This document shows, piece by piece, positions 7,648 to 33,485 of a stretch of DNA of 64,000 nt (positions are counted from its first letter, which is position 1; each line of letters opens with the position of its first letter). The notes under the pieces are model-generated. The model ran no database searches and had not been told where the DNA came from. It saw only the letters and a program-made list of their open reading frames with translations. Location: the NCBI GenBank assembly GCA_963719425.1, contig OY970382.1, forward strand, positions 742,477-806,476, given 5' to 3'. The DNA is from an uncultured bacterium. GTDB taxonomy: Bacteria > Patescibacteriota > Minisyncoccia > UBA6257 > 2-01-FULL-56-20. The position numbers and the translations under genes are program-made.

Positions 7648-8085
7648 ATGGAAACTATCGCTGAAAACCGCAGGGCGCGGTTTGACTATGAAATTTCTGA
7701 CACCTATGAGGCGGGCGTTTCTTTGCTCGGCCACGAAGTGAAGAGTGCAAAAAGCGGCCGCTTCCAGATAGCGGGAGCGCGGGTTTTGATCCGCAACGGC
7801 GAGGCATGGCTTGTCAACTCCCACATCCCGCCCTATCAGCCGAAGAACACCCCTTCGGGCTACGAAGAGGACCGCTCGCGGAAACTTTTGCTGACAAAAG
7901 AGGAAATAAAACAACTGACTGGCGCACTTCAGGAAAAAGGGCAGATGCTCGTCCCACTCCGCGCCTTTCTGAAGCGCGGATTCATAAAATTGGAGCTCGG
8001 ACTCGGCCGCGCAAAGAAGAAATCCGACAAGCGCGAGGCGCTCAAAAAGCGCGCCCACGAGCGCGAGATGCGCGGCACCGAATAA
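7648..8085 (+). CDS. smpB: SsrA-binding protein SmpB
   Basis: 145 aa. RFDYEI...GHEVKS...LLL KEE is an SmpB signature, with a basic C-terminal tail. Confidence 0.9.
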   Translation: METIAENRRARFDYEISDTYEAGVSLLGHEVKSAKSGRFQIAGARVLIRNGEAWLVNSHIPPYQPKNTPSGYEEDRSRKLLLTKEEIKQLTGALQEKGQMLVPLRAFLKRGFIKLELGLGRAKKKSDKREALKKRAHEREMRGTE

Positions 8086-8721: not shown

Positions 8722-9060
8722 GGAGCTGATTATATCACGCAATCGCGCGGTTTTATCCACGTACCATCGTAGTCAAACGGGGGTTAAAATTCTGCCGAAT
8801 TGACAACGCCAAAGAACGAGTCCGGCGCAGCTATAAAACAGCAATTCCACATTTTTACTTCGGAGAGGTTCAATTACTCCTCCCGCTGTGTTTAAGCAGT
8901 CCACAACGTGCCGATTTAGCGCTTGTTGTCGAGAGGCACTCAACCTTTTATCGAGCAACGACGTGCCTGACCCTGGATATGGCGTATACGGATGCACGCC
9001 TGATCGCCAAACCTGATCGAGACTGGTTACAGCCCTAATTGAGGTCTTTGAATTCCGTAA

Positions 9061-9176
9061 GCGCCCTATCATGGAAATGAGTGGTCTTCGTTGGAACTCG
9101 GGGAATATTTGAGGGAATTGCCGAGGCTGATAAATAAGGTACCAGTCGTCATCCCATAGGACGTTCACGACGTGCA
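9061..9176. repeat. Direct repeat copy 1 (~105 bp)
   Basis: Shares a 34/35-nt core gagtggtcttcgttggaactcgg[g/t]gaatatttgag (9069..9103) with copy 2, and about 75% identity over ~105 bp. Confidence 0.7.
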
Positions 9177-9237
9177 TACGTTCATATGGTAGATGTAATG
9201 ATACGCTAGGACTTACTTGCATGGTAAAATTATAAAA

Positions 9238-10002
9238 ATGAAGCTGATTACGCTGAACATCTGGGGTGGCGCCCTCTACGAGCCGCTTGCTGCTTTCATC
9301 AAACACTGGTCTCCCGAGATAGACATATTTTGCTTCCAAGAGGTGCTGTTTGGCTCTACGCCGACATTCACGCCGGTCCACAAAGGCCGCAGTAATATTT
9401 TTTCGGAAATCTCCTCATGGCTCCCTGGCTTTGCTTCCTATCAGCACTTCGCACCCAGCACGCATTTTCAAACGGAGCCCATAGCATTTAGAGCCGGGCA
9501 AGCGATTTTCACAAAATCTTCGCTGGAGATAAGGAGTAACGGCGGATTTCTTTGCTATAAAGGAAAGCCCCCAATCGAAACCACGAAGGGAGGCAAACTG
9601 ACGGGAAACTGCCAATGGATTGATATTGCGGACGGCAACAGCGCCATCACCATCGCGAATTTGCACGGACTGTGGCAAGAGGGCAGCCACAAGGCAGATA
9701 CGCCAGAGCGACTCACTCAATCGCGCATAGTGAAACAATTTCTTGACGGAAGAACGGGAAAGAAAATTCTCTGTGGAGATTTCAATTTATTGCCTGACGG
9801 GCAGAGCATAAAAATCCTTGAGGACGGCATGAAAAACCTGATAAAGGACTATCAAATTCAATCTACGCGCAGTTCGCTTTATAAGAAAGAAATCAAATTT
9901 GCCAATTATATTTTGGTTTCTCCCGAGGTTAAGGTAAAAGATTTTAGGGTTTTGTCAGATGAAGTTTCCGATCATCTCCCGCTCTACTTGGAATTCAATT
10001 GA
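9238..10002 (+). CDS. Endonuclease/exonuclease/phosphatase (EEP) family protein
   Basis: MKLITLNIWGG ... FCFQEV ... SDHLPL motifs. The ORF-track start at 9217 is TTG; the ATG at 9238 is preferred. Confidence 0.75.
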   Translation: MKLITLNIWGGALYEPLAAFIKHWSPEIDIFCFQEVLFGSTPTFTPVHKGRSNIFSEISSWLPGFASYQHFAPSTHFQTEPIAFRAGQAIFTKSSLEIRSNGGFLCYKGKPPIETTKGGKLTGNCQWIDIADGNSAITIANLHGLWQEGSHKADTPERLTQSRIVKQFLDGRTGKKILCGDFNLLPDGQSIKILEDGMKNLIKDYQIQSTRSSLYKKEIKFANYILVSPEVKVKDFRVLSDEVSDHLPLYLEFN

Positions 10003-10033
10003 GGAATGAAATAAAACCATAGTAAGGCTCGGC

Positions 10034-10147
10034 GGTGGAGACGAGTGGTCTTCGTTGGAACTCGGTGAATATTTGAGAAAACTACCACAGCTGCTAAGTC
10101 GGGCACGGTCAGCATCCCGTAGGACGTGCACTACGTGCACAACGTTC
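10034..10147. repeat. Direct repeat copy 2 (~105 bp)
   Basis: Core at 10043..10077 is identical to copy 1 except for one base. The left end ggtggagacgagtgg matches the ssrA 3' terminus (ggtggagacgggcgg) at 13/15 positions. Confidence 0.7.
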
Positions 10148-10216
10148 ACGACATACACGAAGTTCACTCATCTTCCATCATTACTGTCATGCAATGTAAG
10201 ATGGTTTTCAAAGAAT

Positions 10217-11610
10217 TCACAAAACGAAGGCATCGGTTGAGCTTGCTGAGAAGAGTACGGTGGTGCTGGCCTGCGGATCATAAAGGTATAGGCTTCCGCC
10301 GCGCTGAAAAATCAATTTATCGTCCTGCGTCCATTGCAGAGGGGTGACAAGAGGAAAGGCCCGGTCTTCCCCATCGGCTTGATCCATTCCGAGGCTGAAA
10401 AATTTTTTATTTGCGGGATTAGATACCTCTACAACAAAATTTCCGCACTGCTGTTCCGAAGTGCAGCTGTCAAAGACGATGAATTTGTCATCAAGAGACC
10501 AAGTGGGAACACCTATTTCGTAAGGATTCTCGTACAAAGTCGTCGATGGATAAATAAGTAGCGTGAATGATTGATCGTGAGCCGGAACATTCCATAGGGC
10601 GAGTTGAGAGTCCGAAAAGACTTCGACGGCGGCGAGTTTGTCGCCCGCATGGTCAAGCTGTCCACTGTAAAGAGTGTTGTTATCAGGTATAGTCGCGAAT
10701 AATGTATCCTGACCCGTGATCGTATTCAAAACGTGGAATTCCCTTGAGTGTGGTTCCAGCACGTAGTAGGAAGGACTCCCCCAATCCTTATACGTGGGAT
10801 AAAGTATGGAGCGAACATACAAAATATGCGCACCGTCATTTTGGAGAAGACCGTAAATATGGGAGGTATCGCTTGCGATATTGAGCCATTGTCTGCCAAG
10901 CTGTAGTATGTTTCCGCGTCCATGATCGTCGTTGTTGGGGCTGTCGCAGCCGCCATTGATGAATCATATACGGCCCTCCAGGCTTCGTTCGCCCCTCCTA
11001 ATGTCACTGTCGGCGGTAATGGGTACGGCGGGGTAGATGTTGTCCGGAGATCTATAACATTTTGGAATTTGGGTATGTAAACAAGGTGATCCGAAAGCCA
11101 ATAATCGGCGTTAAGAAATTCACCCACAAAACTACCTGTGAGTGATCCCGTGTCTTTGAGGGTTTTCGTGATTCGACCGCCATTATTCAAATCCATAAAA
11201 CCTATATCGGTCTCTCCGTCGTGGCCCAACATATAATATTCCGAATAGGAAAAATTGGGAGAGATGGAATAGTAGAATACGGTTCCGCTGGTATGAGAAA
11301 GTTGCATGGGGTTGCTTCCGTCGTCGTTGGCGATCCACACTTCACCACCCTTTAAAAAGGCAACTTTGTTCTGAAATGTATTCGGTGCAACTGACGACTG
11401 GCTTATACCAATTGTAGTTGTAGACGTTGATGACGTAGATGCGGCAGCTGGTTGGGATAGCGATGCCGGCGGTGGCGGTGGTGAAGTGACCAGCGGAACC
11501 AATGGAGAGGTTGGCTTCTTTAGCGCGAAATATAAAATCCCGCCTCCCACTACCAACAGGACCGCAACGATGAGAATGATTATAATCGGCGCGAAGCCTC
11601 TTCGATTCAT
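10217..11610 (-). pseudogene. Membrane-anchored Pro-rich / beta-propeller (TolB-like) surface protein, interrupted by a frameshift near 10965
   Basis: Two overlapping minus-strand ORFs (10726..11610 and 10217..10822). Both frames read as plausible protein on either side of ~10965. N-terminal TM helix, PPPPP linker, and WIANDDGS / YLYDP beta-propeller-like repeats. Confidence 0.5.
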
Positions 11611-11890
11611 TGCTTTAATTATAACAAATCAGAAACGGTTCGATTCCACTCGTCTCTTAGATATTTTGGGTCAAAAAAAGAGAAAACGACGCTCTGCAAG
11701 CGCTGATTCTGCTGGAGTCCCGATATCAAATAACCGTGGACGCAACGGCACTGCCACCGAACTATTTGATGCTATAGCCGAGAACGCCGAAGCAATGCAG
11801 ACATGGAACGCATTCGCGCAAGCGTTCATGGCCCAGGAACGCAAAGAGGACGCTCTATCTGTAACGCTTTGAGGTTGGTATAATCAGGGC

Positions 11891-12193
11891 ATGATCAAGC
11901 GTAAAGACAACCTCACGGACATCGTTGAAGACCTCCAAAAGGATCGGGATAAAAAGCCGGAACCGAATCAGAAGCCCGAAAAGCCCGGCAAAAACGAATG
12001 GCAAGTCACGGATAACGAAGGAAACATCGTCACTTTGGGCCAAAAACCCGGGAGCCGCACAGCGTCATCTAATAAGGCAAATCCCGTTGAACTATCTCAA
12101 GACGTGATGGAGGCTATCAAGCAGGCGGTACAAACGGGCATCAAAGAAGCGTTTGAGAAGTGGGAGGAAAAACGGCGACGCGAAAAATCGTAA
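11891..12193 (+). CDS. Hypothetical protein (Lys/Glu-rich, 100 aa)
   Basis: ORF only. Lower-GC, phage-like context. Confidence 0.4.
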   Translation: MIKRKDNLTDIVEDLQKDRDKKPEPNQKPEKPGKNEWQVTDNEGNIVTLGQKPGSRTASSNKANPVELSQDVMEAIKQAVQTGIKEAFEKWEEKRRREKS

Positions 12194-12233
12194 TCAGCTG
12201 GAAGGTTGTCGCGAGCGAGGTGCTATGTCATAG

Positions 12234-12968
12234 TTGCAAAGAAACATGGCCATCACAAGAACGAGCCAGCTGCAAAAATGGATATTGGAAACATGCCTGG
12301 AAAAAGTGAGGTTCCAAAGAACGGATGCGCGGGCGTTCTTCGGCAAGCGATTTTCGCCAAGCTACCTCAAAGATAATCCCAAGCATCGCATTGGAGATTG
12401 GAAAATCAAAAAGTGGTATGACGGTGACATGAGCCTGTTCGAACGGCGGACTGAAACCGTCATGGAGTGGCGGCGAAAGCTACAGAAGCGCGTGCCGGTA
12501 ACCAAAATCTACTGCGTCCCCAAAAAAGAGCTCATCGCCACTCCGACCATCGAAGTCACGATCTCGCGCAGCCTGCACAACCTCGTGCGAAAGGACCTGC
12601 TTGAGCAGTCAAAGAAGTGGGGACCGTACACCCTGACCAAACGCGGATTCGAAACTGTTAAGAACAGTCCAGATAAGTGGACTGGTATTAGCTTTAAGGA
12701 ATATGAGGCAAAAGTAGAGGAAGCGCGAAAAGAGGAGGAAGGGTGGATGGCCGCAACGGTCGCCAAGCTGACGCCGCCATCCGCCCAGAAGCAGCGCAAG
12801 ACGCTTGAACTGCAAGCGAAGCTGCAGGACTTTAATAAGCGATTCAATCCGGCGACGATCCACGCGCGATTGTGTAGGAAATGCCAAAAGAAGATAGCCC
12901 GATTCGAAAAGGCGTCCGGAGCTACGGCGATTAAAAAGCTCCGGGATGAAATCAACCGCACAGAGTAA
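12234..12968 (+). CDS. Hypothetical protein, possible winged-helix DNA-binding
   Basis: 244-aa ORF. The segment RSLHNLVRKDLLEQSKKWGPYTLTKRG resembles a winged helix. Confidence 0.45.
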   Translation: MQRNMAITRTSQLQKWILETCLEKVRFQRTDARAFFGKRFSPSYLKDNPKHRIGDWKIKKWYDGDMSLFERRTETVMEWRRKLQKRVPVTKIYCVPKKELIATPTIEVTISRSLHNLVRKDLLEQSKKWGPYTLTKRGFETVKNSPDKWTGISFKEYEAKVEEARKEEEGWMAATVAKLTPPSAQKQRKTLELQAKLQDFNKRFNPATIHARLCRKCQKKIARFEKASGATAIKKLRDEINRTE

Positions 12969-13096
12969 ATGTTAATGAGTTTCTTCCGCGGATGAAACTC
13001 CTTAACAATAAGGATTGTGGCAAGCCATTGTATGGGTTACAATAAAAGTGTGAGACAGCCGAGCTGGCTCAAAAATAGGACGACGTAGGACGACGC

Positions 13097-13654
13097 ATGA
13101 AAATACTCCCCCAGCAGGAATATCATATCCGCCAAGTGATCCGCGACAATCTCGCGCTCAATCCCCTGATCTCAATCCGCAATCTCCAGAAGGTGGTTGA
13201 GTACAACACACATCGCCCGATCGGCGATAAGTATTTGATGCGGTTGCTTGGGAAGATCCGTGGCGAGGTTATTGCCCAAGCGGACCGGCAGGGAGTGGCC
13301 GAGCGGCTCACCGAAGTGAAGGAGCGCTTCCGGGTGTTGCGGAAAGAGTTGCTTCGCATCGTCTACTGGGAGATGAGATACTTCCCGGAGTATGGCATTG
13401 AACGGCCGAGTAGCCGCGACCGTATGAACGCCATAAAAACGATTGCCCAGATGGACCTCGCCCTCCTCAAAACCGAGCTTGATACCGGGATGTTCAGCAA
13501 AAAGCAGAACGACATTGAGGCATTGCTCAACGACCCCGCCTTGCCATCCGAACTGCACGAGCAAATCGTGGGCGTATTCAGGCAATGGAGGTTCTCGCGG
13601 CCTGAACGAACCGAGGCAAAAACAGCTCCGCAGATGGCTATTGTCAAAAACTGA
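13097..13654 (+). CDS. Hypothetical protein
   Basis: 185-aa ORF. No recognisable motif. Confidence 0.45.
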   Translation: MKILPQQEYHIRQVIRDNLALNPLISIRNLQKVVEYNTHRPIGDKYLMRLLGKIRGEVIAQADRQGVAERLTEVKERFRVLRKELLRIVYWEMRYFPEYGIERPSSRDRMNAIKTIAQMDLALLKTELDTGMFSKKQNDIEALLNDPALPSELHEQIVGVFRQWRFSRPERTEAKTAPQMAIVKN

Positions 13655-13703
13655 GAGGGCCGAGGGCGGCGAATAGGAGCCCATTGGGCACCGTTCGAGC
13701 CAC

Positions 13704-14066
13704 GTGGGGAGATTACGGGGATTGAGGGACCTTGTAGGGCGGGGAGAAAATCAAAGCAACCAGACAAAAACCATGAGATATTCAAAAGAACTTCGCGAGG
13801 AGTATAAGCGGACGGTCAAACTGGCCATGATGGCCGTGCCGTCCTTCATGGGGGAGGTCACGTTATACGAAATCAATGAGGCAATGCGGAAGGCTTACGG
13901 CGCCAGGTTCAATAAAAAATATCTGTCAAAGCTGAGGGATGAGCTGCAGGCAGAACAAGATCTGCTCGTGGAGAAGCTCTCGACTCCGGAAGGCAGGATG
14001 GAACTTATTGAGGAGCTGCAGGGAAGACTCGCCCTATTGGATGTGATGGCTCAAACGCTACAGTAG
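13704..14066 (+). CDS. Hypothetical protein
   Basis: 120-aa ORF. Confidence 0.4.
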   Translation: MGRLRGLRDLVGRGENQSNQTKTMRYSKELREEYKRTVKLAMMAVPSFMGEVTLYEINEAMRKAYGARFNKKYLSKLRDELQAEQDLLVEKLSTPEGRMELIEELQGRLALLDVMAQTLQ

Positions 14067-14181
14067 CAAATGAAAAAAAGCCCGGATTGCTTTCGCTTCA
14101 CGGGCTTGATGCCGTGGAGGGTTGCTTGGTCATGCTTATCCGACATGAAAAGAGGGCTGTTTCAGCAGCAAAAAATAGCCA

Positions 14182-14210
14182 TTGACACCAGAACTCTATT
14201 TTGGTAGAAT
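14182..14210 (+). promoter_or_regulatory. Near-consensus sigma70 promoter upstream of the DGR target gene
   Basis: TTGACA (14182..14187), 17-nt spacer, TGgTAGAAT extended -10 (14202..14210). Confidence 0.55.
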
Positions 14211-14340
14211 ATAGGGGTTCTTTAACAAGATAAAAATCAAGGTTTCAAACATACGCATGAGGCGAGTATTCAGCGGGCCGCGCAAGCCCTTTGAACACTC
14301 GTCTCATAACCTGAGCGGGTAGAAAAGGAGGATGATAACG

Positions 14341-15243
14341 ATGCCTACATCGATTACATCCAACATCACCGAAGGACAGAAGGAACTCTACGAGCGCGTC
14401 GTACGCGACGCTGCGAAACACGGCACCGCGCTTGCGCTCGAGAAGACCGGCGCAGACCAGGTTGGCTGGCAGCGCGTCATCGAAAACGGCGACGATCTCC
14501 GCGAAGCGATCGCGGCAACCATCGTGGCCAAAACCCTGGAGCTTTCAATCTCTAACCAGTTCGCCGACGAGGAAGTGGAGTCGAGCTACGGCTACCTGTC
14601 GGGCTATCGGAAGCCCAAGGGCGTCACCGAGCAGACGAACATCCTGCGTCAGCTTTTCCCCGGCGTCGGTTTCGCCGACGAGAAGATCGCGGAACAGCCG
14701 CTCCCGCCGAACACCGAAGGATGGTTCGCCATCCCGAAGTGGGAAACGATCGCCCCGACCTACGGCGAAGCGGTGCAGAAGGTGTTCGACATGATCAAGA
14801 AGACCCGAGGCGGCAAGTTCTACAACTGGCGCGAGGGCCAGCTTGGTCCGCAGTACCTTCGGCAATCCGCGAAGTCGGTCAAGGCGTTCCAGAAACTCGG
14901 CACCGAGCAGAAGGATCACGACATCCTCGTCGTTGCGGCGCAGTTCGGTCTACGTCACCGGGGCCGTTCGGTTCGCAGGGCGCGGGAAGTCATGAACGCA
15001 TCCGAGTTCGGTCTCGGTGCGTTCGCCATCGGGATCATGCTACTCACGCATCCCGAGCGTCTCAGGCACTATGACGATCTCTGGATCGACTGTGCCGGGG
15101 ACGAGTTCAGCTACGATGGCGATGGCCGGTTCGACAGCGCGCCGTTCTTCTACTTCGACGGCGTCGGGGTGAAGTTCGACGCGAGCGACGTTGCCTCTGC
15201 GCTCGCCCACTATGGCTCGGCGTCGGCTTCCGTTCCGCAGTAG
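14341..15243 (+). CDS. DGR target (variable) protein with a C-terminal variable repeat
   Basis: Strong SD AAGGAGG at 14325..14331. The last ~43 codons form the VR. No obvious signal peptide. Confidence 0.8.
   Translation: MPTSITSNITEGQKELYERVVRDAAKHGTALALEKTGADQVGWQRVIENGDDLREAIAATIVAKTLELSISNQFADEEVESSYGYLSGYRKPKGVTEQTNILRQLFPGVGFADEKIAEQPLPPNTEGWFAIPKWETIAPTYGEAVQKVFDMIKKTRGGKFYNWREGQLGPQYLRQSAKSVKAFQKLGTEQKDHDILVVAAQFGLRHRGRSVRRAREVMNASEFGLGAFAIGIMLLTHPERLRHYDDLWIDCAGDEFSYDGDGRFDSAPFFYFDGVGVKFDASDVASALAHYGSASASVPQ
15111..15240 (+). other. DGR variable repeat (VR)
   Basis: 130 bp, 111/130 identical to TR. All 19 mismatches correspond to A in TR. Confidence 0.85.
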
Positions 15244-15326
15244 ATTGAACCTTGATTGCTCGAGTGCTTGGGTCTTTTGATCCTCTTATCTTCTTGATCC
15301 CTTGCATTCGCGCGATTTTTTCCACA

Positions 15327-15357
15327 GGGGCTTCCGCACCATCATCGCGGCAGCCCC
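15327..15357 (+). promoter_or_regulatory. Hairpin downstream of VR (candidate DGR homing-associated stem-loop)
   Basis: ggggcttccgc / gcggcagcccc is an 11-bp stem with one mismatch and a 9-nt loop, ~85 bp 3' of VR. Confidence 0.45.
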
Positions 15358-15670
15358 TTTCTCTTTTCAGCTTCACAAAAAACATTTCCATTTATATACT
15401 TACAAGCGAGCATAGGCTAATGCACGGCCGTCCACGGATTGCCGTCGCCGAACTCTCTCTTCAAAAAAGAGATCCACAGCCAGAGTCCGGACGGTCACGG
15501 CTTTCCGGAGCGTGCTGCCTTGAGGAGATTACTGCTTGCCCCTGCCTTGTGCGGGTGTCCCGCGAGCGCGGGGCTGCTGCCGAATAAAATACAGGAATGA
15601 GAGGATATAGTTCCGCTGCCAGTGGGAAGTAACCCTCGAGATCCGGTGACGCGGACGGGCGGGAGCAATA

Positions 15671-15800
15671 CTACGATGGCGATGGCCGGTTCGACAACGC
15701 GCCGTACTTCAACTTCAACGACGACAAGGTGAAGTTCGACACGAACGACGTTGACAATGCGAACGACAACTATGGCTCGGCGTCGGCATCCGTTCCGAAG
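15671..15800 (+). repeat. DGR template repeat (TR)
   Basis: Non-coding copy of VR, same orientation. Adenine-rich, with AAC codons in the VR frame. Confidence 0.85.
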
Positions 15801-15814
15801 TTCCTCCTCAAGTG

Positions 15815-15840
15815 AAATGCCCCCTTCAGCGGGGGCATTT
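15815..15840 (+). promoter_or_regulatory. Perfect 10-bp hairpin immediately 3' of TR
   Basis: aaatgccccc-ttcagc-gggggcattt, placed between the TR end and the avd stop. Confidence 0.4.
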
Positions 15841-15842
15841 CT

Positions 15843-16190
15843 TTACTGTTTCACTGATCGTATCCACCCGCCGAGCATCCTGCCGATCTCGTCGATTGGA
15901 GCTTGGAGCGCGAGATACTTCTTTCCGTCGATGCCTCTTGTCTCGTGCATGAGACGGATGAAAACGCGAAGGAAGTTGAGTTTCACGCTCGCCCTCTCAA
16001 GCACCGGCAGCTTCTCGCTCTTGGACATCTGGCTGGCAGCCATGATGCCCTCAAGCACGTCGAGGATCATCGCGTCGCACCGTTGCCAGATGGTATAGCG
16101 GTCCTGCTTCGACATCGTGTTGCGATAGCTGTAAAACAGCTTGTAGAGATCGCAGGTCTTCTTGAAGATGGGAACATCAAAATCATCCAT
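15843..16190 (-). CDS. avd: Avd-like accessory variability determinant (four-helix-bundle / 23S rRNA IVS protein family)
   Basis: 115 aa. The C-terminal ...PIDEIGRMLGGWIRSVKQ resembles the Bordetella phage Avd C-terminus (EVGRILGSWIARVNRKGQ). Confidence 0.8.
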   Translation of the reverse strand: MDDFDVPIFKKTCDLYKLFYSYRNTMSKQDRYTIWQRCDAMILDVLEGIMAASQMSKSEKLPVLERASVKLNFLRVFIRLMHETRGIDGKKYLALQAPIDEIGRMLGGWIRSVKQ

Positions 16191-16198
16191 TAGCTTTT

Positions 16199-17239
16199 AT
16201 GAAGGTTTATAAAAACGCATTCGACCGTATTGCGTCTCTCGAAAATCTCTTTGCTGCGTGGAACGCCTTCAAGGGAAACAAGCGGAACAAGGATGACGTG
16301 CAGCAGTTTGAGCGGCACCTTGAGCAAAACATTTTCCAGCTGCATCGTGATCTCACGAGTGGGTCGTACCGGCACGGCCCGTATTACGGTTTCTACATTC
16401 ACGACCCCAAGCAGAGGCACATCCACAAAGCGTCCGTAAGAGACAGGGTTTTGCATCACGCGGTCGTATCGGTGATCAACCCAATGTTCGAGGAGGCCTT
16501 TATCCCATCCTCCTTCTCGTGCCGCGTTGGATTTGGCACGCACAAGGGCGTCGATGTCCTCGAAGAAATGGCACGGGCGGCGGCGGAGAACGGCACCGCA
16601 CCATGCTTCATTTTGAAATGCGATGTTCGGAAGTTCTTTGACAGCGTTGACCATGACGTCCTGCTCGGCATTTTGGGAAAGCGCATCAAGGACGATGCCA
16701 CGATAAATCTCATCACAGAAATCGTCGAGAGCTTCTCATCTTCCCGATCAAGCCTATTTGATCGCAAAGGGCTGCCGATCGGCAACCTCACGTCGCAGCT
16801 TTTCGCGAACACTTACATGAACGAGTTCGACCAGTTCATAAAACACGACCTCAAGGTGAAGCAGTACGCCCGTTACACGGACGACTTCGCCATCGTCGCA
16901 TCCGATCGCGCGTACTTGGAGAACCTGATCGAGCCGATCTCCCGCTTCCTGAATGACCGGCTTGCGCTTGAGCTGCATCCGAAAAAAATATCTATCGGGA
17001 AGCTGCATAATGGCATCGACTTCCTCGGATACGTCATGTTCCCGAGACATCGGCTTGTCCGGGCCAAAACGCGCCGCCGGATGTTCGCGAAGTTCGCGGC
17101 GAAGATAGCGGCGGTCCGCAGCGGAAGCATTTCCGAGGACTCTCTTATCGCTTCGCTCCGGTCATATCTCGGCGTCTTGTCGCACGCGGATGCGCATCGA
17201 TTGTCGGAGGACCTGAAGAACGGACTATGGTTCAACTAA
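16199..17239 (+). CDS. DGR reverse transcriptase
   Basis: 346 aa. LPIGNLTSQLFAN is the DGR-specific motif-4 signature, and YTDDF is the catalytic box. Confidence 0.9.
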   Translation: MKVYKNAFDRIASLENLFAAWNAFKGNKRNKDDVQQFERHLEQNIFQLHRDLTSGSYRHGPYYGFYIHDPKQRHIHKASVRDRVLHHAVVSVINPMFEEAFIPSSFSCRVGFGTHKGVDVLEEMARAAAENGTAPCFILKCDVRKFFDSVDHDVLLGILGKRIKDDATINLITEIVESFSSSRSSLFDRKGLPIGNLTSQLFANTYMNEFDQFIKHDLKVKQYARYTDDFAIVASDRAYLENLIEPISRFLNDRLALELHPKKISIGKLHNGIDFLGYVMFPRHRLVRAKTRRRMFAKFAAKIAAVRSGSISEDSLIASLRSYLGVLSHADAHRLSEDLKNGLWFN

Positions 17240-17248
17240 TGCCCGGCC

Positions 17249-17947
17249 TCAATACCACTTCGCCACGCCTCCGTGATGCGAACACGCGCCGCTGTGGGTT
17301 TTGCTGTAGCTGTATGATCCGTCGCGGCAGAGCGCGGTAGCACCGGTAGGCACGCCTGCATTGGTCTTGATCGTCGGAGTAACCGTCGTTGTCTTGGGTT
17401 TCGGAACCGCCTTCGCACCCGCCGCCATCATCGCGGAATAGTATTTGAGCCAGTTGCTTGAAATCTCCGCTTGGGCATCGCTCAAAGACATCTTTCCGCT
17501 GCATACCTGTGTGTGCAGATAGTTCTCGAACTTATCCTTGATCAAAGAACCGTTTGCAATCAACGAGGACTCCGGCCAGAGGTTTGCGATGGCGTTGCTG
17601 CCGCCAAGTTCCAAGCTGATAAGATGATCCACCTCGTAGTTGGCGTGGAGCTTGTATGCGATGCCGTATTCGGCGAACACCTGCTTACTCTCCGAAAGCG
17701 GGACGTTACGGACGGTCTTCGTGTAACCCACGGTGCACACCGTTGCAGTGTTGGTCGTGAGCACCGCCCCAGGCGTGCAGCCGGAGTCCGGCAACACTTG
17801 GTTCCCGACGCACTGCGACGTTTTCGTCTGCACGCCATAGGCGGCGAGTGAAGGCAACGCGCTCGCAGCGAGCATGAGTGCGGCGAGGGCGAAAACTGAC
17901 GTTTTCATGCTCATGAGGGTCATTGAATGTTGACCAACGTGTTGCAC
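17249..17947 (-). CDS. Secreted protein with HNH-like nuclease motif and C-terminal DUF3761-like Cys motif
   Basis: Signal peptide MKTSVFALAALMLAASALPSLAA. EVDHLISLELGGSN is HNH-like. C-terminal CRDGSYSYSKTHSGACSHHGGVAKW. The true start may be at 17908. Confidence 0.55.
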   Translation of the reverse strand: MQHVGQHSMTLMSMKTSVFALAALMLAASALPSLAAYGVQTKTSQCVGNQVLPDSGCTPGAVLTTNTATVCTVGYTKTVRNVPLSESKQVFAEYGIAYKLHANYEVDHLISLELGGSNAIANLWPESSLIANGSLIKDKFENYLHTQVCSGKMSLSDAQAEISSNWLKYYSAMMAAGAKAVPKPKTTTVTPTIKTNAGVPTGATALCRDGSYSYSKTHSGACSHHGGVAKWY

Positions 17948-19119
17948 GCGTCGTTGCCAGTCCCGCCCTCAATGATGCCCTGCTGCTTCAGGAAATCGCA
18001 GAGCGTGGACTGGTCAAATCCCGACCAGTTGATCTTCTGGTAGGTGTCCTTGTCCATTCCGTAGATCAGCACGGGAGTGTTGTTGTGCTGATTCCCGTAC
18101 GCGTCCGTTGTCTGGCCATCATATTCGACAAGAACATCGTAAGCATTATTGCCGGACGAGTATACGGTTTGGAATAGCTGAGCCGAGAGCTTGTTGGTCA
18201 CGTCGAGCAACGCGCTCTTGTCCAAGAAGTTCCCGACGTTCACGAAGACGGTGATCCCGGTCGTTCCCGCTGGCCGGTCCGGATCGGCAGCGTTTATTCG
18301 CAGATCCCCATAGTCCGCCTGAATGCCGCCGCCGAGCTTGGATATGTTGCCTTGAACGTTGTGCTTCAGCGCCTGTTGCGTTTGAAGAACCTGCTGCGCC
18401 CCCTGAAAGGTTTGGTCCGCAAGCGTTTGCTGTTCCTGCTTTATCGCAGCGGCTTGTGAGGTGGTGATCGCCGGAGATGCCTTGATCAAATCCAGCGCTT
18501 GGCTCTCGTCGCTGTTGCCCTGCTCAATGGAAGTGAATGCCGCGTTCGCCGCATCGGGATCAAGGAAGGAGAAACCGCCCTTCGGCACGGCGACATTGAT
18601 CGCCGCGACCAAGGCGTTGATGCCGCTTATCTGACTTGAAACTGCCTGATTGAGCAAGCTGTCTGCCTGCGACAAGTCGGAGGGGGCTTGGCCGTTCAGC
18701 GATTGGATGTTTTTCTGGGCCTGCGAGAAGTCGGCCTGCGCTTCGGTCTCGCTCGCGGTTACGAGGTCTTCAAGGTATTGTCCGCCGTAGATCGCCAGCG
18801 TGGGATCGCGCATGTCCTTCTGCGCTTTCTGGATGGCGGGTATCACGTTCGTCTGAACGGAGTTTATGTAATCCGCATCCGACAACTTGGGGCCGGAGTT
18901 GGTTGCGTTGGTAGTTTGCGCGGGGTTTGAAGCGACCGGGGTACCAGCTGGCGCGGTCGGACTGGTGATGCCGACGAGGACAAAGAACACGACTATCGCA
19001 CCGCCGAAGATCATGCCTACGCGTTTGCGCGAAGGCATTTTGATCCAAGATGGCTTTATGAGGCCAACGATAAGGCCAAGGAAAGAAACGAGGAGAAGAA
19101 CAATAAAGAAATCGTTCAT
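17920..19119 (-). CDS. Hypothetical membrane-anchored Gln/Ala/Ser-rich protein
   Basis: The likely start is MNDFFIVLLLVSFLGLIVGLI (ATG at 19119). The ORF-track extension to 19218 is probably readthrough. Confidence 0.5.
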   Translation of the reverse strand: MNDFFIVLLLVSFLGLIVGLIKPSWIKMPSRKRVGMIFGGAIVVFFVLVGITSPTAPAGTPVASNPAQTTNATNSGPKLSDADYINSVQTNVIPAIQKAQKDMRDPTLAIYGGQYLEDLVTASETEAQADFSQAQKNIQSLNGQAPSDLSQADSLLNQAVSSQISGINALVAAINVAVPKGGFSFLDPDAANAAFTSIEQGNSDESQALDLIKASPAITTSQAAAIKQEQQTLADQTFQGAQQVLQTQQALKHNVQGNISKLGGGIQADYGDLRINAADPDRPAGTTGITVFVNVGNFLDKSALLDVTNKLSAQLFQTVYSSGNNAYDVLVEYDGQTTDAYGNQHNNTPVLIYGMDKDTYQKINWSGFDQSTLCDFLKQQGIIEGGTGNDACNTLVNIQ

Positions 19120-19439
19120 GGTTGTGTGGTTGGTTGAAAAAACAAACGCCCCTCGCGCGGAGGAGCTTTCATCGACCAAAAAGCCCACCACGTGGGTGAG
19201 GGCTTTCGCCCTCCACACCGGTTTCCCGATGTGGCTGATCAGAGCAATCCCACATGATGGGGTTTTTAGCTCTGATCAGACTTCTTGTGCCATGCCGGGC
19301 ATTGCTGTCACGGTTTAGGCTACTGATTAAGTTGTGATTAGATATTACAATACTCCGGAGCATTTGCGAAGCATCGCCGATTTTGAAGCTACAGGAGCCC
19401 CCCTCAACTCTTCGAGGATAATCCGGTATAGTTCAGAAT

Positions 19440-21095
19440 ATGGCAACGCCAACAAATCCCGAGGAACTGCTTGAGGCACTTCGCCCATTGCAGATTAATG
19501 AAGACGAGGATGAGGAAAAGCGGCGAAAATGGCGTTACGTGATATACGCGAGAAAATCTACCGACGACAAGGACAAGCAAGTCCGTTCGCTCCCAGATCA
19601 GGTGCACGATTGTCAGGAGTTCGCGGCGGAACACAATCTCCATGTTGGTCTCAAGGACATCATCCAAGAAGCCGAATCGGCGAAAGAACCCGACATCCGG
19701 CCGAAGTTCCGTGCGATGATCGAAGATGTAAAGCGCGGGAAGTATGACGGCATCATCGCGTGGCATCCCGACCGGCTCGCGCGCAACATGAAAGACGCTG
19801 GTGAAATCATTGACCTCATCGACAAGCATATTATAAAAGACCTCCAGTTCAAGAGTTTCACGTTCACGAATGATCCAAGCGGCAAGATGCTACTCGGCAT
19901 CACCTTTGTTCTCGCAAAACAGTATTCCGAACAACTCGGCGTGAGCATCTCGCGCGGCAACCGACGGAGCATCGAGGAGGGGAAATATGTTGGCCGCACA
20001 AAGCACGGCTATTACAAAGACTCCGACCAATATCTCCGACCGGATGGTCAGAACTTCATCCTGATCAAAAACGCATTCCGGATGCGCATTGGGGGCTCGA
20101 CCTACGAACAAATCGCTGATTACCTCAACGCAAATGGGTATCAGCATGCACGGCGCGACGGCACTCACGTTCTGTTCAAAATGAATCTCAAGCGGGTTGA
20201 GAACTTCATGCGAGACACCGTCTATAGCGGAGTCATTGTGTACGGCAAGAAAGGCGGGGCCGTGAACCTCACAAAAATATACGACTTTCAACCAGCGATC
20301 AGCGTGCCGGATTTCATGAAAATCTATCACCTCGACAAAAAGGGATTCATGCGTCTTGCGAGAAAAAATCGACGCCAAGAAGATATAAAAGCAAGCCTCC
20401 TGCGAGGCATAGTGATTTGCGCGGCATGCGATGAGGTAATGTCGGCTGGCATCACACCAAAGCAAAACAAGGGAAGAGTCACACGATATTTTTACTACCG
20501 CTGCGACAATGAGGATTGTTCACGACACGACAAGTCGGTGCGGGCAAAGGTAATCTTGGATTACGCGAAGGAGTTCCTTGAAAAGAAACCATTCTCCTCG
20601 AGAAAGGCCTACAATCACTATGCCGAAGAAATGCCGCGGGTGGCGGCAGAGCGCGAGCGCGAAACGCGACTTCTTCTCGCAGGACAGAAAAATAGGAAGC
20701 TCCACCTCGAGAACAAGTTGGCCAAGCTGGAAGAGGGCCTCATGTACGAGGAAGACGAGGGTATAAAGGCTCTCTATCGCCGGGACAAGCCGACAGTGGA
20801 GGGCGATGTTAGAGGGGTTGATGCAGAAATCGACAGGCTTGAGGGCAAACTGAAGGCCGGAAAGACGGCCATACTCACATACACGGAGTTTCTCGAACTA
20901 ATGGAGAAAATGGGGGAAATGCTGACCTCCAAGACACCCATGAAGGATTTGGACGCGATCATCAGAAAAGTGTTCTCGAACTTTACCGTAAGCGCAAAAA
21001 AGGTAGAGAAATGGAGCCTTGCCGCGCCATTTGATGCGCTTTACGACCCCAAAATGACGAATGGTGGAGACGGGCGGAATCGAACCGCCGTGTAA
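19440..21095 (+). CDS. Large serine recombinase (phage-type serine integrase)
   Basis: 551 aa. YARKSTDDKDKQVRSLPDQ resolvase catalytic motif, recombinase domain, Cys zinc ribbon (CAACDEV...YYRCDNEDC), C-terminal coiled coil. Confidence 0.85.
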   Translation: MATPTNPEELLEALRPLQINEDEDEEKRRKWRYVIYARKSTDDKDKQVRSLPDQVHDCQEFAAEHNLHVGLKDIIQEAESAKEPDIRPKFRAMIEDVKRGKYDGIIAWHPDRLARNMKDAGEIIDLIDKHIIKDLQFKSFTFTNDPSGKMLLGITFVLAKQYSEQLGVSISRGNRRSIEEGKYVGRTKHGYYKDSDQYLRPDGQNFILIKNAFRMRIGGSTYEQIADYLNANGYQHARRDGTHVLFKMNLKRVENFMRDTVYSGVIVYGKKGGAVNLTKIYDFQPAISVPDFMKIYHLDKKGFMRLARKNRRQEDIKASLLRGIVICAACDEVMSAGITPKQNKGRVTRYFYYRCDNEDCSRHDKSVRAKVILDYAKEFLEKKPFSSRKAYNHYAEEMPRVAAERERETRLLLAGQKNRKLHLENKLAKLEEGLMYEEDEGIKALYRRDKPTVEGDVRGVDAEIDRLEGKLKAGKTAILTYTEFLELMEKMGEMLTSKTPMKDLDAIIRKVFSNFTVSAKKVEKWSLAAPFDALYDPKMTNGGDGRNRTAV

Positions 21096-21377
21096 AGGTA
21101 ATGCGCGTGGGCCGTCTACGGGCGTGTCTAGTGGAACACTAGCAACGCGATCCTAGTTTTCGCGCGCGGTATAGGATCATCCGCCGCGGCTAGTCCCCTT
21201 ATATAAGACCGGCTGTGAGCCCAAGGAACCCGGACTCGCCGATCCCGGCATTACGCGTAAGCGAACGCCGGAGCTGTAACTCTATTAGAGTTGGCAGTTA
21301 TGTTTTGTGCGGCAGTTACGTCGTCGCCCTCGGCCCGCAAACCCACTGCTTGCCCTTATCAAAGCCAGTGCGTCCCC
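21062..21377 (-). ncRNA. ssrA: Probable tmRNA (ssrA)
   Basis: 3' end GGCGG-UUCGAUU-CCGCC CGUCUCC A CCA (T-arm, acceptor, CCA). 5' GGGGACG pairs with it 316 nt upstream. CUGGCUUUGAUAAGGG resembles the conserved tmRNA 5' motif. Internal tag ORF GCC AAC ... = ANSNRVTAPAFAYA then UAA. Confidence 0.55.
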
Positions 21378-21479
21378 TATTCAATTGTCCCGCCATTGTA
21401 CCAAAACGGACACGATAAGTGCAACGCAAGGCCTTGAGCGACTCTGGCTTCAAAGGAGCGAGAAAGCTTCTCATTGCGC

Positions 21480-22055
21480 TTATTGCGCCTCCACCACCTT
21501 CTGCACGTTCGCACGCTTGAGCAACTCCGCCTGGAGCCACTCGGCGAGGTCTTTATCCATCGCCGGCAGGATCCCTTCCGATTCGTCCTCGCCGGATTTT
21601 TCTTCCTCCTCGCCCGCGGTCAAAATGACGAGCCGGCTCAAGCCAAGCATCTGGAACGAGAGGTCTCTTTCTATATCCGCATTCTGGATCTGGCGGTACG
21701 GGATCGCGGTTTCTTCTTTGTTCAAAACTCCTTTTTTGATCTTCAGCGCATCGTCGCCAAGATAAAATTTGTAGTTCCTATAAATGAGCCACGTAACCAA
21801 AAAAGTGACGGCGGCAACCAGCACGAAGACGAGAAACGCAATCCACGCGGAAAGACCGACGTAAGAACTGAGGTCAATGGAAAAAACATTTTTTAAGAAT
21901 GGCTGGCCCCGAAGGGCGAAGAGGACGATGGTGATGAGCAAAAACACCGCAGCAATGTGTATCCGGTCCAGAAGAAAGATCATGAAGGTCTTTTTCCCGA
22001 GCGTGTGATACACTTCCTGCGGAACGCCGGGGTGATCCACCGGTTTCTCGTCCAT
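21480..22055 (-). CDS. Bacterial PH-domain (YdbS/YdbT-like) membrane protein
   Basis: 191 aa, two TM helices followed by a bPH_2-like domain. Confidence 0.55.
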   Translation of the reverse strand: MDEKPVDHPGVPQEVYHTLGKKTFMIFLLDRIHIAAVFLLITIVLFALRGQPFLKNVFSIDLSSYVGLSAWIAFLVFVLVAAVTFLVTWLIYRNYKFYLGDDALKIKKGVLNKEETAIPYRQIQNADIERDLSFQMLGLSRLVILTAGEEEEKSGEDESEGILPAMDKDLAEWLQAELLKRANVQKVVEAQ

Positions 22056-29943: not shown

Positions 29944-30498
29944 ATGGACCTCCGTCTGGGAACTCTGAAGGTTGTTCCCGCGAGCGAACACCTGGAACTG
30001 GTCGCAAAAGGGGTTGCAAGCATGCTTTCATCCTTGCCCGATGCAAATGAGATAGGAGTGGCCGAGATAGACCCAAACCTTTCCGACACAGCAGCGTTCT
30101 GCAAACACTATCAGGTTGAGATGAACCAAGCGGCTAACTGCGTGGTTCTTGAAGCAAAGCGTGCCGAGCGAACATGGTTCGCGGCCTGCGTTATCCTCGG
30201 GAATACCCGTGCCGATGTGAATGGTCTGGCTCGCCGTACCCTTGATGCCCGCAGGGCGTCATTTGCATCTATGGACCAAGTGGTGGCCCAGACCGGAATG
30301 GAATACGGAGCTATTACTCCTATCGGCCTTCCCAGCGACTGGCCCATTCTTGTTGATAAGGCCGTGGTTGATGCAGAATATGTCATTATCGGGAGCGGCA
30401 TCCGCAAATCCAAATTAGTTTTACCAGGAAAACTTCTCGCTAGCTTGCCCAATGTTCAGGTCTTGGAAGAGCTCGGACGCCGGGCCAGCGCTGGATAA
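29944..30498 (+). CDS. YbaK/ProX-like aminoacyl-tRNA deacylase domain protein
   Basis: 184 aa with YbaK/prolyl-tRNA editing domain-like sequence. Start uncertain. Confidence 0.6.
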   Translation: MDLRLGTLKVVPASEHLELVAKGVASMLSSLPDANEIGVAEIDPNLSDTAAFCKHYQVEMNQAANCVVLEAKRAERTWFAACVILGNTRADVNGLARRTLDARRASFASMDQVVAQTGMEYGAITPIGLPSDWPILVDKAVVDAEYVIIGSGIRKSKLVLPGKLLASLPNVQVLEELGRRASAG

Positions 30499-30591
30499 TT
30501 CGCCTACCCGTTAATTCTGTTTCGTCCTACGAGACTCACCAGGCGAGAGAAAAACATCTCGCGACAGAGAGGGGTTTTGTCTTGAGTTCCC

Positions 30592-31173
30592 TCAAACTCG
30601 CTTGCGCAGTGATAATGCCGTGATGGCCGTGTGGTGCGCAAGACAGATCATAGGGCTCACATAGTCCATCAACTGCGTTTTGGGCTGTAGTGTGAGCGCG
30701 ATGATGTTCAGGACAAAGGCCAGGGTCCAGAGCAGCCATGGCCTGGTCGGCTCGTTGCGCGGATCGCGCAGGACGTTCCGATATGTCGGGATGAATGCCA
30801 AGCAGTACGCAATCTGATTGATCAGATTCCCTCCTGCCGCAGTCCGGTAGAGCACCCACAGCAGTACGGCGATGAGACTCACAAGTGTGATCCATTTATC
30901 TTTCTCGTCCACATGGACGTGTCCCTTGAGGCGGATCAGAACGACCAGTGTGGTTCCCACGCAGACCACGAAGTCCGTCAGGAGCACTGCGACATTGACA
31001 AAATTCGCAGTCCAACTGAGATATGTCAGGGAGTTGATGAGAGTGATCAAGCTGAAGAGCCCCCAGGCAGCAAATGCCGGAAGATTCTTCCCAAGGATCA
31101 CGCCCTCGTTATATATCCAGAATGCGACCAGGAAGGTCGCACTCGCCGATAGAAACAATGCGGTAGCAACCAC
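30592..31173 (-). CDS. Hypothetical polytopic membrane protein
   Basis: 193 aa with multiple hydrophobic helices. Confidence 0.45.
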   Translation of the reverse strand: MVATALFLSASATFLVAFWIYNEGVILGKNLPAFAAWGLFSLITLINSLTYLSWTANFVNVAVLLTDFVVCVGTTLVVLIRLKGHVHVDEKDKWITLVSLIAVLLWVLYRTAAGGNLINQIAYCLAFIPTYRNVLRDPRNEPTRPWLLWTLAFVLNIIALTLQPKTQLMDYVSPMICLAHHTAITALSLRKRV

Positions 31174-31319
31174 GGCAATCCTCCAGTCTTTGCATGCAGC
31201 GGAATTTGAAAACCAAATCTGAACAAATTATAGCATTTATACGCCTATTTTGTCAAGCATATTTCTTTCGGACAGGTAAGGACGAGAACATTGTCCAAAC
31301 CAAGGTATAATAAGCACAA

Positions 31320-31961
31320 ATGAGATTGATTCTTTTTGGTGGAGCGGAAGTAGCCCTAGGCCAAGTGAAGCCCGAACTGAAACTTATTGAAAAAGTTATC
31401 AAGCGACTGAAGCCAAAACAAGTCCTACACATTCCCTTCGCAAGAACGAGGGCTAAAGAAAAAGAATGGAGAGAGGGTTGGTTTGCTAAGAATGTTTATA
31501 TAGGAAACATCAAATACTTGAACGCCAAAAGAAAGCAAGATATCCGGAAGACATCCGATCCTCTGATCTTTATAAGTGGCGGGGGTGAAAAAATTAACTT
31601 GATGAGAAAGATAAGATCCAATCCCAATCTTCTGCATCTAATAAAAAATGCTTCTCGCATCGTCGGCGAGTCGGCAGGAAGCGAGATCCTTGGGGCATAT
31701 TTCAGGTCAAAAGGAGCTGATCCTCGCAGTCCCATGATGAAAGGTTTGGATATCATTAAAAACGCGGTGATAGAGCCGCACTATACGGAAAGAAAGCGGC
31801 AAAAACTACTTCTCAAAGATATGCAGCAAGCTCGCGTTCAATATGGAATAGGCATCGATTGCATGACGGCGATAGAGTTTGAAGTGAATGCGTTCCCAAA
31901 GAAATATAAGAAGATAGGGACCGGCGCTGTGGTGGTGAGGAAGTCGCCTGCTCTGTGTTGA
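31320..31961 (+). CDS. Peptidase S51 (peptidase E / cyanophycinase-like) family protein
   Basis: LFGGAE... GESAGS nucleophile-serine motif. AT-rich gene. Confidence 0.6.
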   Translation: MRLILFGGAEVALGQVKPELKLIEKVIKRLKPKQVLHIPFARTRAKEKEWREGWFAKNVYIGNIKYLNAKRKQDIRKTSDPLIFISGGGEKINLMRKIRSNPNLLHLIKNASRIVGESAGSEILGAYFRSKGADPRSPMMKGLDIIKNAVIEPHYTERKRQKLLLKDMQQARVQYGIGIDCMTAIEFEVNAFPKKYKKIGTGAVVVRKSPALC

Positions 31962-32022
31962 GCGGGATTATCGCTTGAGCATCGTCCGCGACGGCCAGTC
32001 AAAATAAGCTATAATTTCAGTA

Positions 32023-32514
32023 ATGAATCCAAAGCACGAAACCTTCGTTAGAGACCTCATCAAGGGGAAAATTGCCGAGATTATATTCGAACAAATGTTT
32101 CGTGAATCTGGGAAGTATACCATCCTCCATTCGGGCTATGAGTATACCCTTCCCGAGCTTGCCCAATATCAACACCTAGCAGAGATTAAAACTGTCATGG
32201 AAAATATCCGCAACGCCCCCGATTTCGTACTAGTATCTCAAGATAAAAAAGAGGTCTACCTTGTTGAGGTTAAATACCGTGCGCGCAGAGATCCGGAATA
32301 TCTCAAGCAAATCGTCCAAGAAACACTAAAAGTTTGGAATCCCTCCTGGCTATTCGTCGCTTCGCCTGACGGTTTCTTTTTTGAACCCTGCAATACAATT
32401 CTTACGAACGAAGGGCATATCGGCGCGCTCGTGAACGAAAAGTTTGTCGATCATAAAATCCGCGATGAATATTTGAAATTGCTGAACCAGTTTGAAATGA
32501 ACATCCCAAACTAG
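32023..32514 (+). CDS. Hypothetical protein, possible PD-(D/E)xK nuclease fold
   Basis: PDFVLV...EVYLVEVKY resembles a D...E.K core. AT-rich. Confidence 0.4.
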   Translation: MNPKHETFVRDLIKGKIAEIIFEQMFRESGKYTILHSGYEYTLPELAQYQHLAEIKTVMENIRNAPDFVLVSQDKKEVYLVEVKYRARRDPEYLKQIVQETLKVWNPSWLFVASPDGFFFEPCNTILTNEGHIGALVNEKFVDHKIRDEYLKLLNQFEMNIPN

Positions 32515-32899
32515 CTCGTTTTTGGTGCTAAACTAGAAGACTATTGTTAAGATGTATATAAAACTTTGTTTCCAGCTTGAATAATCGATTTTATCTATTA
32601 CTACTTATTAAAAATTGATAAAAAAGTTTTTGACATTGTAACAATAATTATGGTATTCAGAAAGAGTCACAAATGGTACAATAAAACCATGAGAAATATC
32701 AACCCAAGGGACTCATATACCTTCAGATTATTCTCTGAATTACCCTCTTTTATTGGCGGTTTCACAAGCTTGTTTGGCTTTGGGTCCATCATAGATAAAT
32801 ACAATACCGATAAGACCGAGGAGCTTGCCGATGAAAATTCAATTCACTCTGATTGGAAGGCGGTTGGTTCTGATATGTATATAGCCCTAACCAAAGCCC

Positions 32900-33343: not shown

Positions 33344-33385
33344 CTGGCCTCTATCCCGAAGCAGTCAATAATATACCCTATTTTG

Positions 33386-33460
33386 TGGTGCCCTCGTGAG
33401 GAATTGAACCTCAATCTTCTCCTTCGGAGGGAGATGTCCTATCCGTTGAACTACGAGGGC
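33386..33460 (-). tRNA. tRNA-Arg (anticodon CCG)
   Basis: Cloverleaf folded by hand: acceptor GCCCTCG/CGAGGGC, anticodon loop CTCCGAA, T-arm TGAGG-TTCAATT-CCTCA, CCA encoded. Confidence 0.85.
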
Positions 33461-33485
33461 CGCGTGGCGCCGTGGCCGTACGGGG

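Follow-up and report, generated by a model that had tools for sequence, protein, structure and literature searches.

A single-piece tmRNA gene with a serine recombinase island at its 3' end in a Patescibacteria bacterium

A transfer-messenger RNA (tmRNA, ssrA) gene lies on the minus strand at 21062..21377 of a 64,000-nt stretch of contig OY970382.1 (hereafter the window, with positions counted from its first letter). The gene is 316 nt long, is of the one-piece type and encodes its own CCA. Upstream of it is a gene with a bPH_2 domain (21480..22055, minus strand), and at its 3' end a gene for a large serine recombinase of 551 aa (19440..21095, plus strand), recognised by the Pfam domains Resolvase, Recombinase and Zn_ribbon_recom, runs convergent to it. 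A gene for SmpB, the protein partner of tmRNA, is found at 7648..8085 (plus strand). A preliminary description made from the sequence alone had named the feature a probable tmRNA, an identification that has held up: two independent detectors (ARAGORN and Rfam), orthologs in four related genomes (loci L001-L004), covarying helices and the presence of smpB all agree with it. We have hardly any doubt that the feature is a genuine, intact and ordinary single-piece tmRNA gene with an island-bearing 3' end. The host is a bacterium of the candidate phyla radiation (CPR, or Patescibacteria), Paceibacterota/Minisyncoccia-like, with a genome of about 0.89 Mb.

ARAGORN called the tmRNA at exactly 21062..21377 on the minus strand, with the tag ANSNRVTAPAFAYA followed by the stop. 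At the same coordinates the Rfam covariance model RF00023 gave 102 bits (gathering score 47, E = 9.8e-39) and was matched end to end, from model position 1 to 374 of 374 and without truncation. A covariance-model search had been proposed as a check on the identification, and its outcome is a full-length match far above threshold. The 3' end of the gene (21062..21089, minus strand) has the tRNA-like module that had been described, consisting of the T-arm GGCGG/TTCGATT/CCGCC, the acceptor 3' strand CGTCTCC, the discriminator A and CCA. This 28-nt module occurs once in the 64-kb window against 0 occurrences expected in shuffles, and its uniqueness together with the Rfam E value excludes a chance origin of the match.

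The gene begins GGGGACGCACTGGCTTTGATAAGGG at 21377. From this position the acceptor 5' strand GGGGACG pairs with CGTCTCC in a 7-bp stem that includes a G3.U wobble, the alanine identity pair; the single G-U pair and the span of 316 nt were thus read correctly from the sequence, as was the tmRNA-like 5' element GCACTGGCTTTGATAAGGG directly after the acceptor strand. The tag reading frame runs from the alanine resume codon GCC to TAA at 21251..21295 (minus strand; gene positions 83-127 in the ARAGORN output), the codons from 21295 to 21251 being GCC AAC TCT AAT AGA GTT ACA GCT CCG GCG TTC GCT TAC GCG TAA. It encodes ANSNRVTAPAFAYA, and the tag first proposed for this frame is identical to that of ARAGORN. 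A statement that no protein-coding open reading frame (ORF) fits the gap around the gene needs amendment: the interval between the coding genes measures 384 nt (21096..21479), but the convergent recombinase ORF covers the last 34 nt of the tmRNA. The last 11 codons and the stop of this ORF (ending GGDGRNRTAV) are antisense to the T-arm/acceptor end.

A candidate promoter for the tmRNA was read by eye at 21395..21424 (minus strand). It is composed of TTGCAC at 21424-21419, an 18-nt spacer, a TG at 21403-21402 and TACAAT at 21400-21395, and its -10 region is kept in L001 and L002. A consensus promoter and terminator scan around the tmRNA gave nothing usable and missed this candidate, of which the -35 hexamer matches at 3 of 6 positions only. 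The promoter would leave a short 5' leader for removal by RNase P.

Related loci were retrieved with the bPH_2-domain gene as the query, and four related genomes were found in this way. Their labels are Minisyncoccia, Paceibacterota, 'uncultured bacterium' (a complete 0.9-Mb chromosome) and Saccharibacteria. The tmRNA gene directly follows the bPH_2 gene in all four, and collinearity of the window with its relatives extends more than 8 kb upstream of the gene. The body of the tmRNA is near-identical to those of L001 and L002, and its identity to the tmRNAs of recombinase-free relatives is about 95%. The 3' module equals that of the relatives up to ...CGTCTCCAC, beyond which all five flanks diverge at once. 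The relatives carry the tags ANSNRVTAPAFAYA (twice), ANEQVAVPSFAFA and ANSNRVPALAYA, and a more distant tmRNA (L006/L089) has the tag ANFNVAAPRVGALAFA. Tag frames stay open in the orthologs and their lengths differ by whole codons only, as expected for a translated segment. The C-termini of the ortholog tags are alike, reading FAYA, FAFA, LAYA or LAFA.

A comparative fold was obtained from six tmRNAs, three of them nearly identical, with the structure predicted from the same six sequences. In its 95 pairs, 95.6% of cells were paired, against 34-41% (maximum 40.7%) when the partners were slid, and compensatory changes occurred in 34 of the 95 pairs against 2-9 in the slid controls. The fold has compact 3' helices and the canonical tmRNA architecture. 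The G3.U pair is invariant in all six sequences, the T-arm has three covarying pairs, and the P2 helix has 27 pairs of which 13 covary. One stem of the first pseudoknot (PK1) is present, with alignment columns 51-56 pairing with 64-69 and 3 covarying pairs. The small hairpin that had been placed after the stop codon of the tag does exist; however, it encloses the stop codon (alignment columns 119-146) instead of following it.

The smpB gene was assigned by the NCBIfam SmpB equivalog model (168 bits, cutoff 130) and by Pfam SmpB (160 bits). It is separated from the tmRNA 3' end by 12,977 nt, in line with the distance of about 13 kb given earlier; in the relatives the two genes are 2.9-5.2 kb apart. 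In trans-translation the tRNA-like domain of tmRNA is charged with alanine and enters stalled ribosomes together with SmpB. Translation would then resume at the GCC codon and ANSNRVTAPAFAYA would be added to the truncated protein, which the hydrophobic, alanine-rich C-terminus of the tag would mark for proteolysis. The gene, its structure and conservation, the tag frame and the partner gene are all directly observed in the window and its relatives.

The recombinase that adjoins the tmRNA weakly resembles XisF and CcrB. A search at E <= 1e-20 gave more than 1,500 homologs, with named sources mostly in Parcubacteria, Paceibacterota, Nomurabacteria and Kaiserbacteria; no relatives were found in viral contigs. 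We surveyed 80 metagenomic loci and several long-contig loci of the family, of which 66 cover the sequence past the recombinase stop codon. In 56 of these 66 a tRNA or tmRNA gene (hereafter t(m)RNA) is convergent at the recombinase 3' end. The recombinase ORF ends inside the t(m)RNA in 54 loci as measured by script, with overlaps of 11-112 nt; in L029 and L035 the script took a tRNA farther off, and a nearer one proved on inspection to be overlapped by the ORF. The targets of the family are tRNA-Pro, Val, Glu, Ala, Leu, Ile, Ser, Gln, Gly and Lys, and four are tmRNAs (the window, L006, L048 and L056).

Two kinds of locus in this survey bear on how such an enzyme works. In a complete Kaiserbacteria genome (CP064968.1, locus L092) the target is tRNA-Val(tac), and a 21-nt direct repeat, TTCAAGTCTCTTATCGCGCAC, with sites at 6611-6634 and 11623-11698, bounds a 5-kb island. 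The repeat begins exactly at the T-loop; its recombinase-side copy encodes CCA and its displaced copy does not. Such a repeat is what integration classically leaves when the target gene is regenerated. At other loci (L005, L007/L011) no complete t(m)RNA was called, and the recombinase genes still end in t(m)RNA-3'-like sequence, which shows that the element itself carries the 3' mimic, joined to its integrase gene at the 3' end. L005 (4001-5845) is the closest homolog of the window recombinase, with 64% identity, and has TTCGATCTCCACC and then ATTTGGGGTCG, as in the window. There is no adjoining tmRNA body at L005, and because none supplies a stop codon the ORF runs through the degenerate tmRNA-3'-like TTCGATCTCCACC to a length of 614 aa. 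In the window the integrase stop codon sits on the tmRNA side of the junction.

Elsewhere in the survey, one small element with a tandem pair of recombinase genes is shared by L090 and L091 (5400-11700), where it lies in different upstream contexts. In L091 two tRNA-Ala(tgc) genes in inverted orientation flank the element, and directly after the far tRNA stands a 133-nt stretch that duplicates a recombinase 3' region in inverted form. The arrangement of these two loci points to rearrangement by inversion.

Downstream of the tmRNA, synteny by blastn and tblastx defines a hypervariable interval at 8748..21061, between the Maf/smpB backbone and the tmRNA. The distance to the backbone (Maf, smpB and arginyl-tRNA synthetase) is 12.3 kb in the window and 2.9-5.2 kb in L001-L003. 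None of the genes at 8748-21061 has a counterpart in the relatives by blastn or tblastx, the only shared sequence being a repeat of about 118 nt. This interval most likely contains a recombinase island proper at about 11636..21087. By analogy with L092 and with the ssrA islands of Dehalococcoides (discussed below), the element would recombine at about the start of the T-loop and would bring its own copy of the T-loop-to-CCA segment, by which the tmRNA would be regenerated rather than destroyed. The segment of the tmRNA 3' from about the T-loop is accordingly described here as probably island-supplied, on that analogy, and the recombinase would be the enzyme that mobilises the island integrated at the tmRNA 3' end.

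The approximately 118-nt intergenic element occurs twice in the window (9072-9188 and 10033-10149), with 9-nt tandem ACGTGCACA repeats at 10124-10149. It is also present downstream of the tmRNAs of relatives, at 12976-13093 and 14767-14884 in L001 and at 13802-13897 in L002. It could be a promoter or operator, an iteron-like module or another att-related sequence. No known RNA family was matched at E <= 1 by Rfam in 8700-12000, a range that takes in this element and the inverted fragment described next.

A candidate for the far boundary of the island was found by sequence match and BLAST at 11636..11672 (plus strand), where there is an inverted partial copy of the tmRNA-proximal island end. 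Its first part, CGGTTCGATTCCACTCGTCTC at 11636-11656 (plus strand), matches the tmRNA from the T-loop through the acceptor 3' strand at 19 of 21 positions, is inverted with respect to the gene and lies 9.4 kb from it. Six nucleotides further on is ATTTTGGGTC, a 10-nt match to the 3' coding sequence of the recombinase, whose counterpart at the near end, ATTTTGGGGTC, is the antisense of the recombinase codons D-P-K-M. The fragment stands at the start of the block of plus-strand island genes. The orientation of the 11636-11656 copy is wrong for a displaced attachment fragment. It can be read in two ways. The copy may be the partner arm of a palindromic attP, with the displaced chromosomal arm lost, or it may be the scar of a second, inverted element end, comparable to the inverted tRNA-Ala and 133-nt remnant of L091. 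Two further ideas were rejected. A second, decayed element at 11.6 kb is not borne out, as tblastn detected no recombinase pseudogene near the inverted fragment, and terminal inverted repeats as a family-wide feature fail on their absence from L089 and L092-L095, which leaves them as a hypothesis for the window only.

Several of the observations weigh against our interpretation of the gene and its island. In the comparative fold the second, pseudoknotting stem of PK1 could not be identified by eye. The covariation figures are somewhat flattering, in that the fold was derived from the sequences in which changes were counted and three of these are near-identical; the Rfam model is independent of them. 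Expression and activity of the tmRNA are inferred from sequence. As to the island, a search of the window that allowed up to 5 mismatches in 21 nt found no direct copy of the tmRNA 3' end that might serve as a far boundary, and the tmRNA 3' region is identical in island-free relatives, which makes the crossover point unreadable from polymorphism. The match of the inverted 21-mer alone has a BLAST E value of 0.39, and chance is not formally excluded as its source. Searches over 10 kb in L089 and L093-L095 likewise yielded no direct repeat of the t(m)RNA 3' end.

The preliminary description had itself named one way in which it could be wrong, namely that the 3' module is a mere integrase attachment remnant, in which case the region would hold no functional tmRNA gene. 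A site-specific recombinase gene does overlap the module, elements of the family do carry t(m)RNA 3' mimics without a complete gene (L005, L007/L011), and there is the partial extra copy at 11636-11656. However, the covariance match spans the model without truncation, and the gene has its 5' acceptor strand, P2, PK1 stem, tag frame and 3' domain, all of them covarying with the orthologs; its body is syntenic with the tmRNAs of recombinase-free relatives and shares about 95% identity with them. The 3' end is thus not a mere remnant, because the gene is complete and syntenic, and we give this reading practically no credence; what was right in the concern is that the 3' end is also an attachment site and island junction. 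A related possibility, for which there is a precedent (PMC7192596), is that the present gene replaced a native tmRNA whose body is disrupted or displaced elsewhere in the genome. It would fit with the probably element-supplied 3' segment and with the full CCA, which is encoded here and in none of the four relatives. Against it, the same bPH_2 gene precedes the tmRNA in all four relatives with 8 kb of upstream synteny, the whole body is near-identical to those of L001 and L002, and neither ARAGORN nor Rfam called a second or disrupted tmRNA, in a scan that covers the 64-kb window only. We consider replacement very unlikely.

The remaining alternative concerns the recombinase, which might work as a DNA invertase or resolvase on the two inverted 21-nt stretches (11636-11656 and 21067-21087) and flip the 9.4-kb segment between them instead of integrating or excising an island. 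The sole extra copy of the tmRNA 3' end is indeed inverted and not direct, and in L091 an inverted tRNA-Ala pair flanks a family element, with the 133-nt inverted match suggesting rearrangement relative to L090. Yet the protein has the full architecture of a large serine integrase (Resolvase, Recombinase and Zn ribbon in 551 aa), L092 combines a direct repeat with an island-sized insertion, and the segment is absent from the relatives rather than inverted in them. A flip would also give the tmRNA 3' end two T-stem mismatches, the 21-mer match is of the low significance already noted, and no inverted copy lies within 10 kb in L089, which is the closest relative that targets a tmRNA. We regard inversion as unlikely, and retain integration at the 3' end of an intact tmRNA gene as the explanation of the locus. 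The encoded CCA was tried as a sign of an island-supplied 3' end and given up, its enrichment being weak (35 of 51 against 18 of 40, p = 0.03) in a comparison that included some misclassified controls. No CCA is encoded by the three further tmRNA targets of the recombinase family, and the feature was not used as evidence.

As cargo the island carries a complete diversity-generating retroelement (DGR) at 14332..17239 (plus strand), identified from its repeat and domains. The target gene (14332..15243, plus strand) has the variable region (VR) at its C-terminus, at 15111-15241, ending 2 nt before the stop, and the template region (TR), with which the VR forms a 131-nt repeat, is at 15671-15801 (plus strand). 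An Avd gene (15843..16190, minus strand; bAvd 57.5 against a 40-bit cutoff, PHROG 'Avd protein of DGR') and a reverse transcriptase gene (16199..17239, plus strand; RVT_1) complete the set. All 19 mismatches between VR and TR fall on TR adenines, and 18 of the 19 fall at codon positions 1-2. No Pfam domain was found in the target protein. A prophage nature of the island was considered and rejected, since PHROGs matched the Avd protein and otherwise gave two weak hits of unknown function only; the island is not recognisably phage.

A LOOT RNA (Rfam RF03000) is located at 19198..19321 (minus strand), with a full-length match of 86 bits against a gathering score of 46.4. It is divergent from the recombinase, at 118 nt from the recombinase start, and may belong to the integration module. 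Using covariance models built in this analysis we searched the recombinase loci and four recombinase-free tmRNA loci for LOOT; about 16 distinct recombinase elements carry it, and all four recombinase-free loci lack it. Besides the window, the LOOT-bearing loci are L005, L006/L089, L008, L010, L013/L014/L090/L091, L016, L019, L022, L037, L048, L066, L075/L076, L082, L093 and L094. The divergent arrangement was seen in eight loci at 68-148 nt from the recombinase, and at 112-118 nt in five. Covariation of the LOOT RNAs is strong, with 93% of cells paired and compensatory changes in 31 of 37 pairs. LOOT is absent from a more distant recombinase clade that targets tRNA-Pro and tRNA-Glu and so is not obligatory.

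Two roles for LOOT were tried. As a guide RNA for the target, on the model of the IS110 bridge RNAs, it would be expected to match its own target, and matches to the own target, sense or antisense, were no longer than those to the targets of other loci; this role is rejected. A role as the leader of one conserved gene finds no support in the downstream ORFs, which are heterogeneous. For LOOT the searchable literature yielded neither a function nor a genomic association, the supplement of the discovery paper being outside that search, and no specific description of CPR serine integrases that target t(m)RNA genes was found there either.

Taken at its widest, the material would suggest that the tmRNA is among the targets of a large and apparently undescribed CPR family of serine integrases specialised in t(m)RNA T-loops, with genes that end antisense inside the regenerated 3' end and with LOOT as a functional part of the integration module. 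In such a module LOOT might, for instance, regulate the integrase gene or set the direction of recombination, acting from its fixed place about 70-150 nt divergent from the integrase start. It may further be that strong tmRNA transcription, running convergently into the 3' end of the integrase gene, holds the integrase silent as long as the element is integrated. We put this forward tentatively, as a proposal that in its entirety we think doubtful.

Two other parts of the window may be mentioned. The isoleucyl-tRNA synthetase ORF (2124-5687, minus strand, 1187 aa) has an apparent His_Phos_1 insert at residues 512-680, which splits the match to the catalytic domain. At 30000-34000 the GC content is low (0.455-0.496 against about 0.53-0.56 elsewhere), beside a tRNA-Arg(ccg) at 33386-33460 (minus strand), and small ORFs (Peptidase_S51, DUF2335) are found in this stretch, which could be a second island at a tRNA.

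The tmRNA as such is of an already known kind, routine and found by standard tools. Its occurrence here indicates that tmRNA-SmpB ribosome rescue is kept in a CPR lineage with a reduced genome, and it documents a tag family AN...A[FY]A that is useful for annotation. The island context is modestly interesting beyond this. CPR t(m)RNA genes appear as integration hot spots for islands with serine rather than tyrosine integrases, such islands carry DGRs, a hallmark of CPR genomes, and LOOT gains a reproducible genomic address at which hypotheses on its function become testable.

Compared with the SsrA RNA of E. coli (tag ANDENYALAA), the tmRNA of the window shares the G3.U acceptor stem, the T-arm, a long P2, a PK1 stem before the alanine resume codon, a tag that opens Ala-Asn and has a hydrophobic, alanine-rich end, a stop codon within a hairpin, and SmpB in the genome. 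It differs in length (316 nt against 363 nt), with the 3' pseudoknot regions compacted, and in the end of the tag, which is FAYA where the E. coli tag has LAA. Islands and prophages with tyrosine integrases in tRNA and tmRNA genes are reported by Williams ('Traffic at the tmRNA gene').

The closest likeness of the island is to the ssrA islands of Dehalococcoides, which have a CcrB-like serine recombinase of about 540 aa beside ssrA, insertion at the T-loop and a 20-bp direct repeat (PMC3146451). Common to both are a large serine recombinase of about 540-550 aa beside the ssrA 3' end, convergent to the gene and with resemblance to CcrB, a hypervariable region downstream of ssrA, and T-loop insertion that regenerates the gene, the last by analogy for the window. 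The host, however, belongs to CPR and not to Chloroflexota, the targets of the CPR family include many different tRNAs besides tmRNA, and the window has an inverted copy where no 20-bp direct repeat was found. No other resolvase-domain gene that could be a second, small serine recombinase (DsiA-like) was detected in the window by tblastn, and no Pfam domains of a RecF/ParB/Mom-like module were present in neighbouring ORFs. Without a module of the Dehalococcoides type, the island of the window is an analogue and not a member of that group, the comparison with DsiB being by description and not by sequence.

Use of a t(m)RNA 3' end as attB, restoration of the gene by the element and an integrase gene beside the attachment site are features known from tyrosine-integrase islands (Islander database, PMC4383910). 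In the window the enzyme is instead a serine recombinase, and its ORF terminates inside the t(m)RNA on the opposite strand. The LOOT family stems from the survey of Weinberg et al. 2017 (PMC5737381); the copy in the window fits the family model over its full length, and the RNA here recurs beside a recombinase family.

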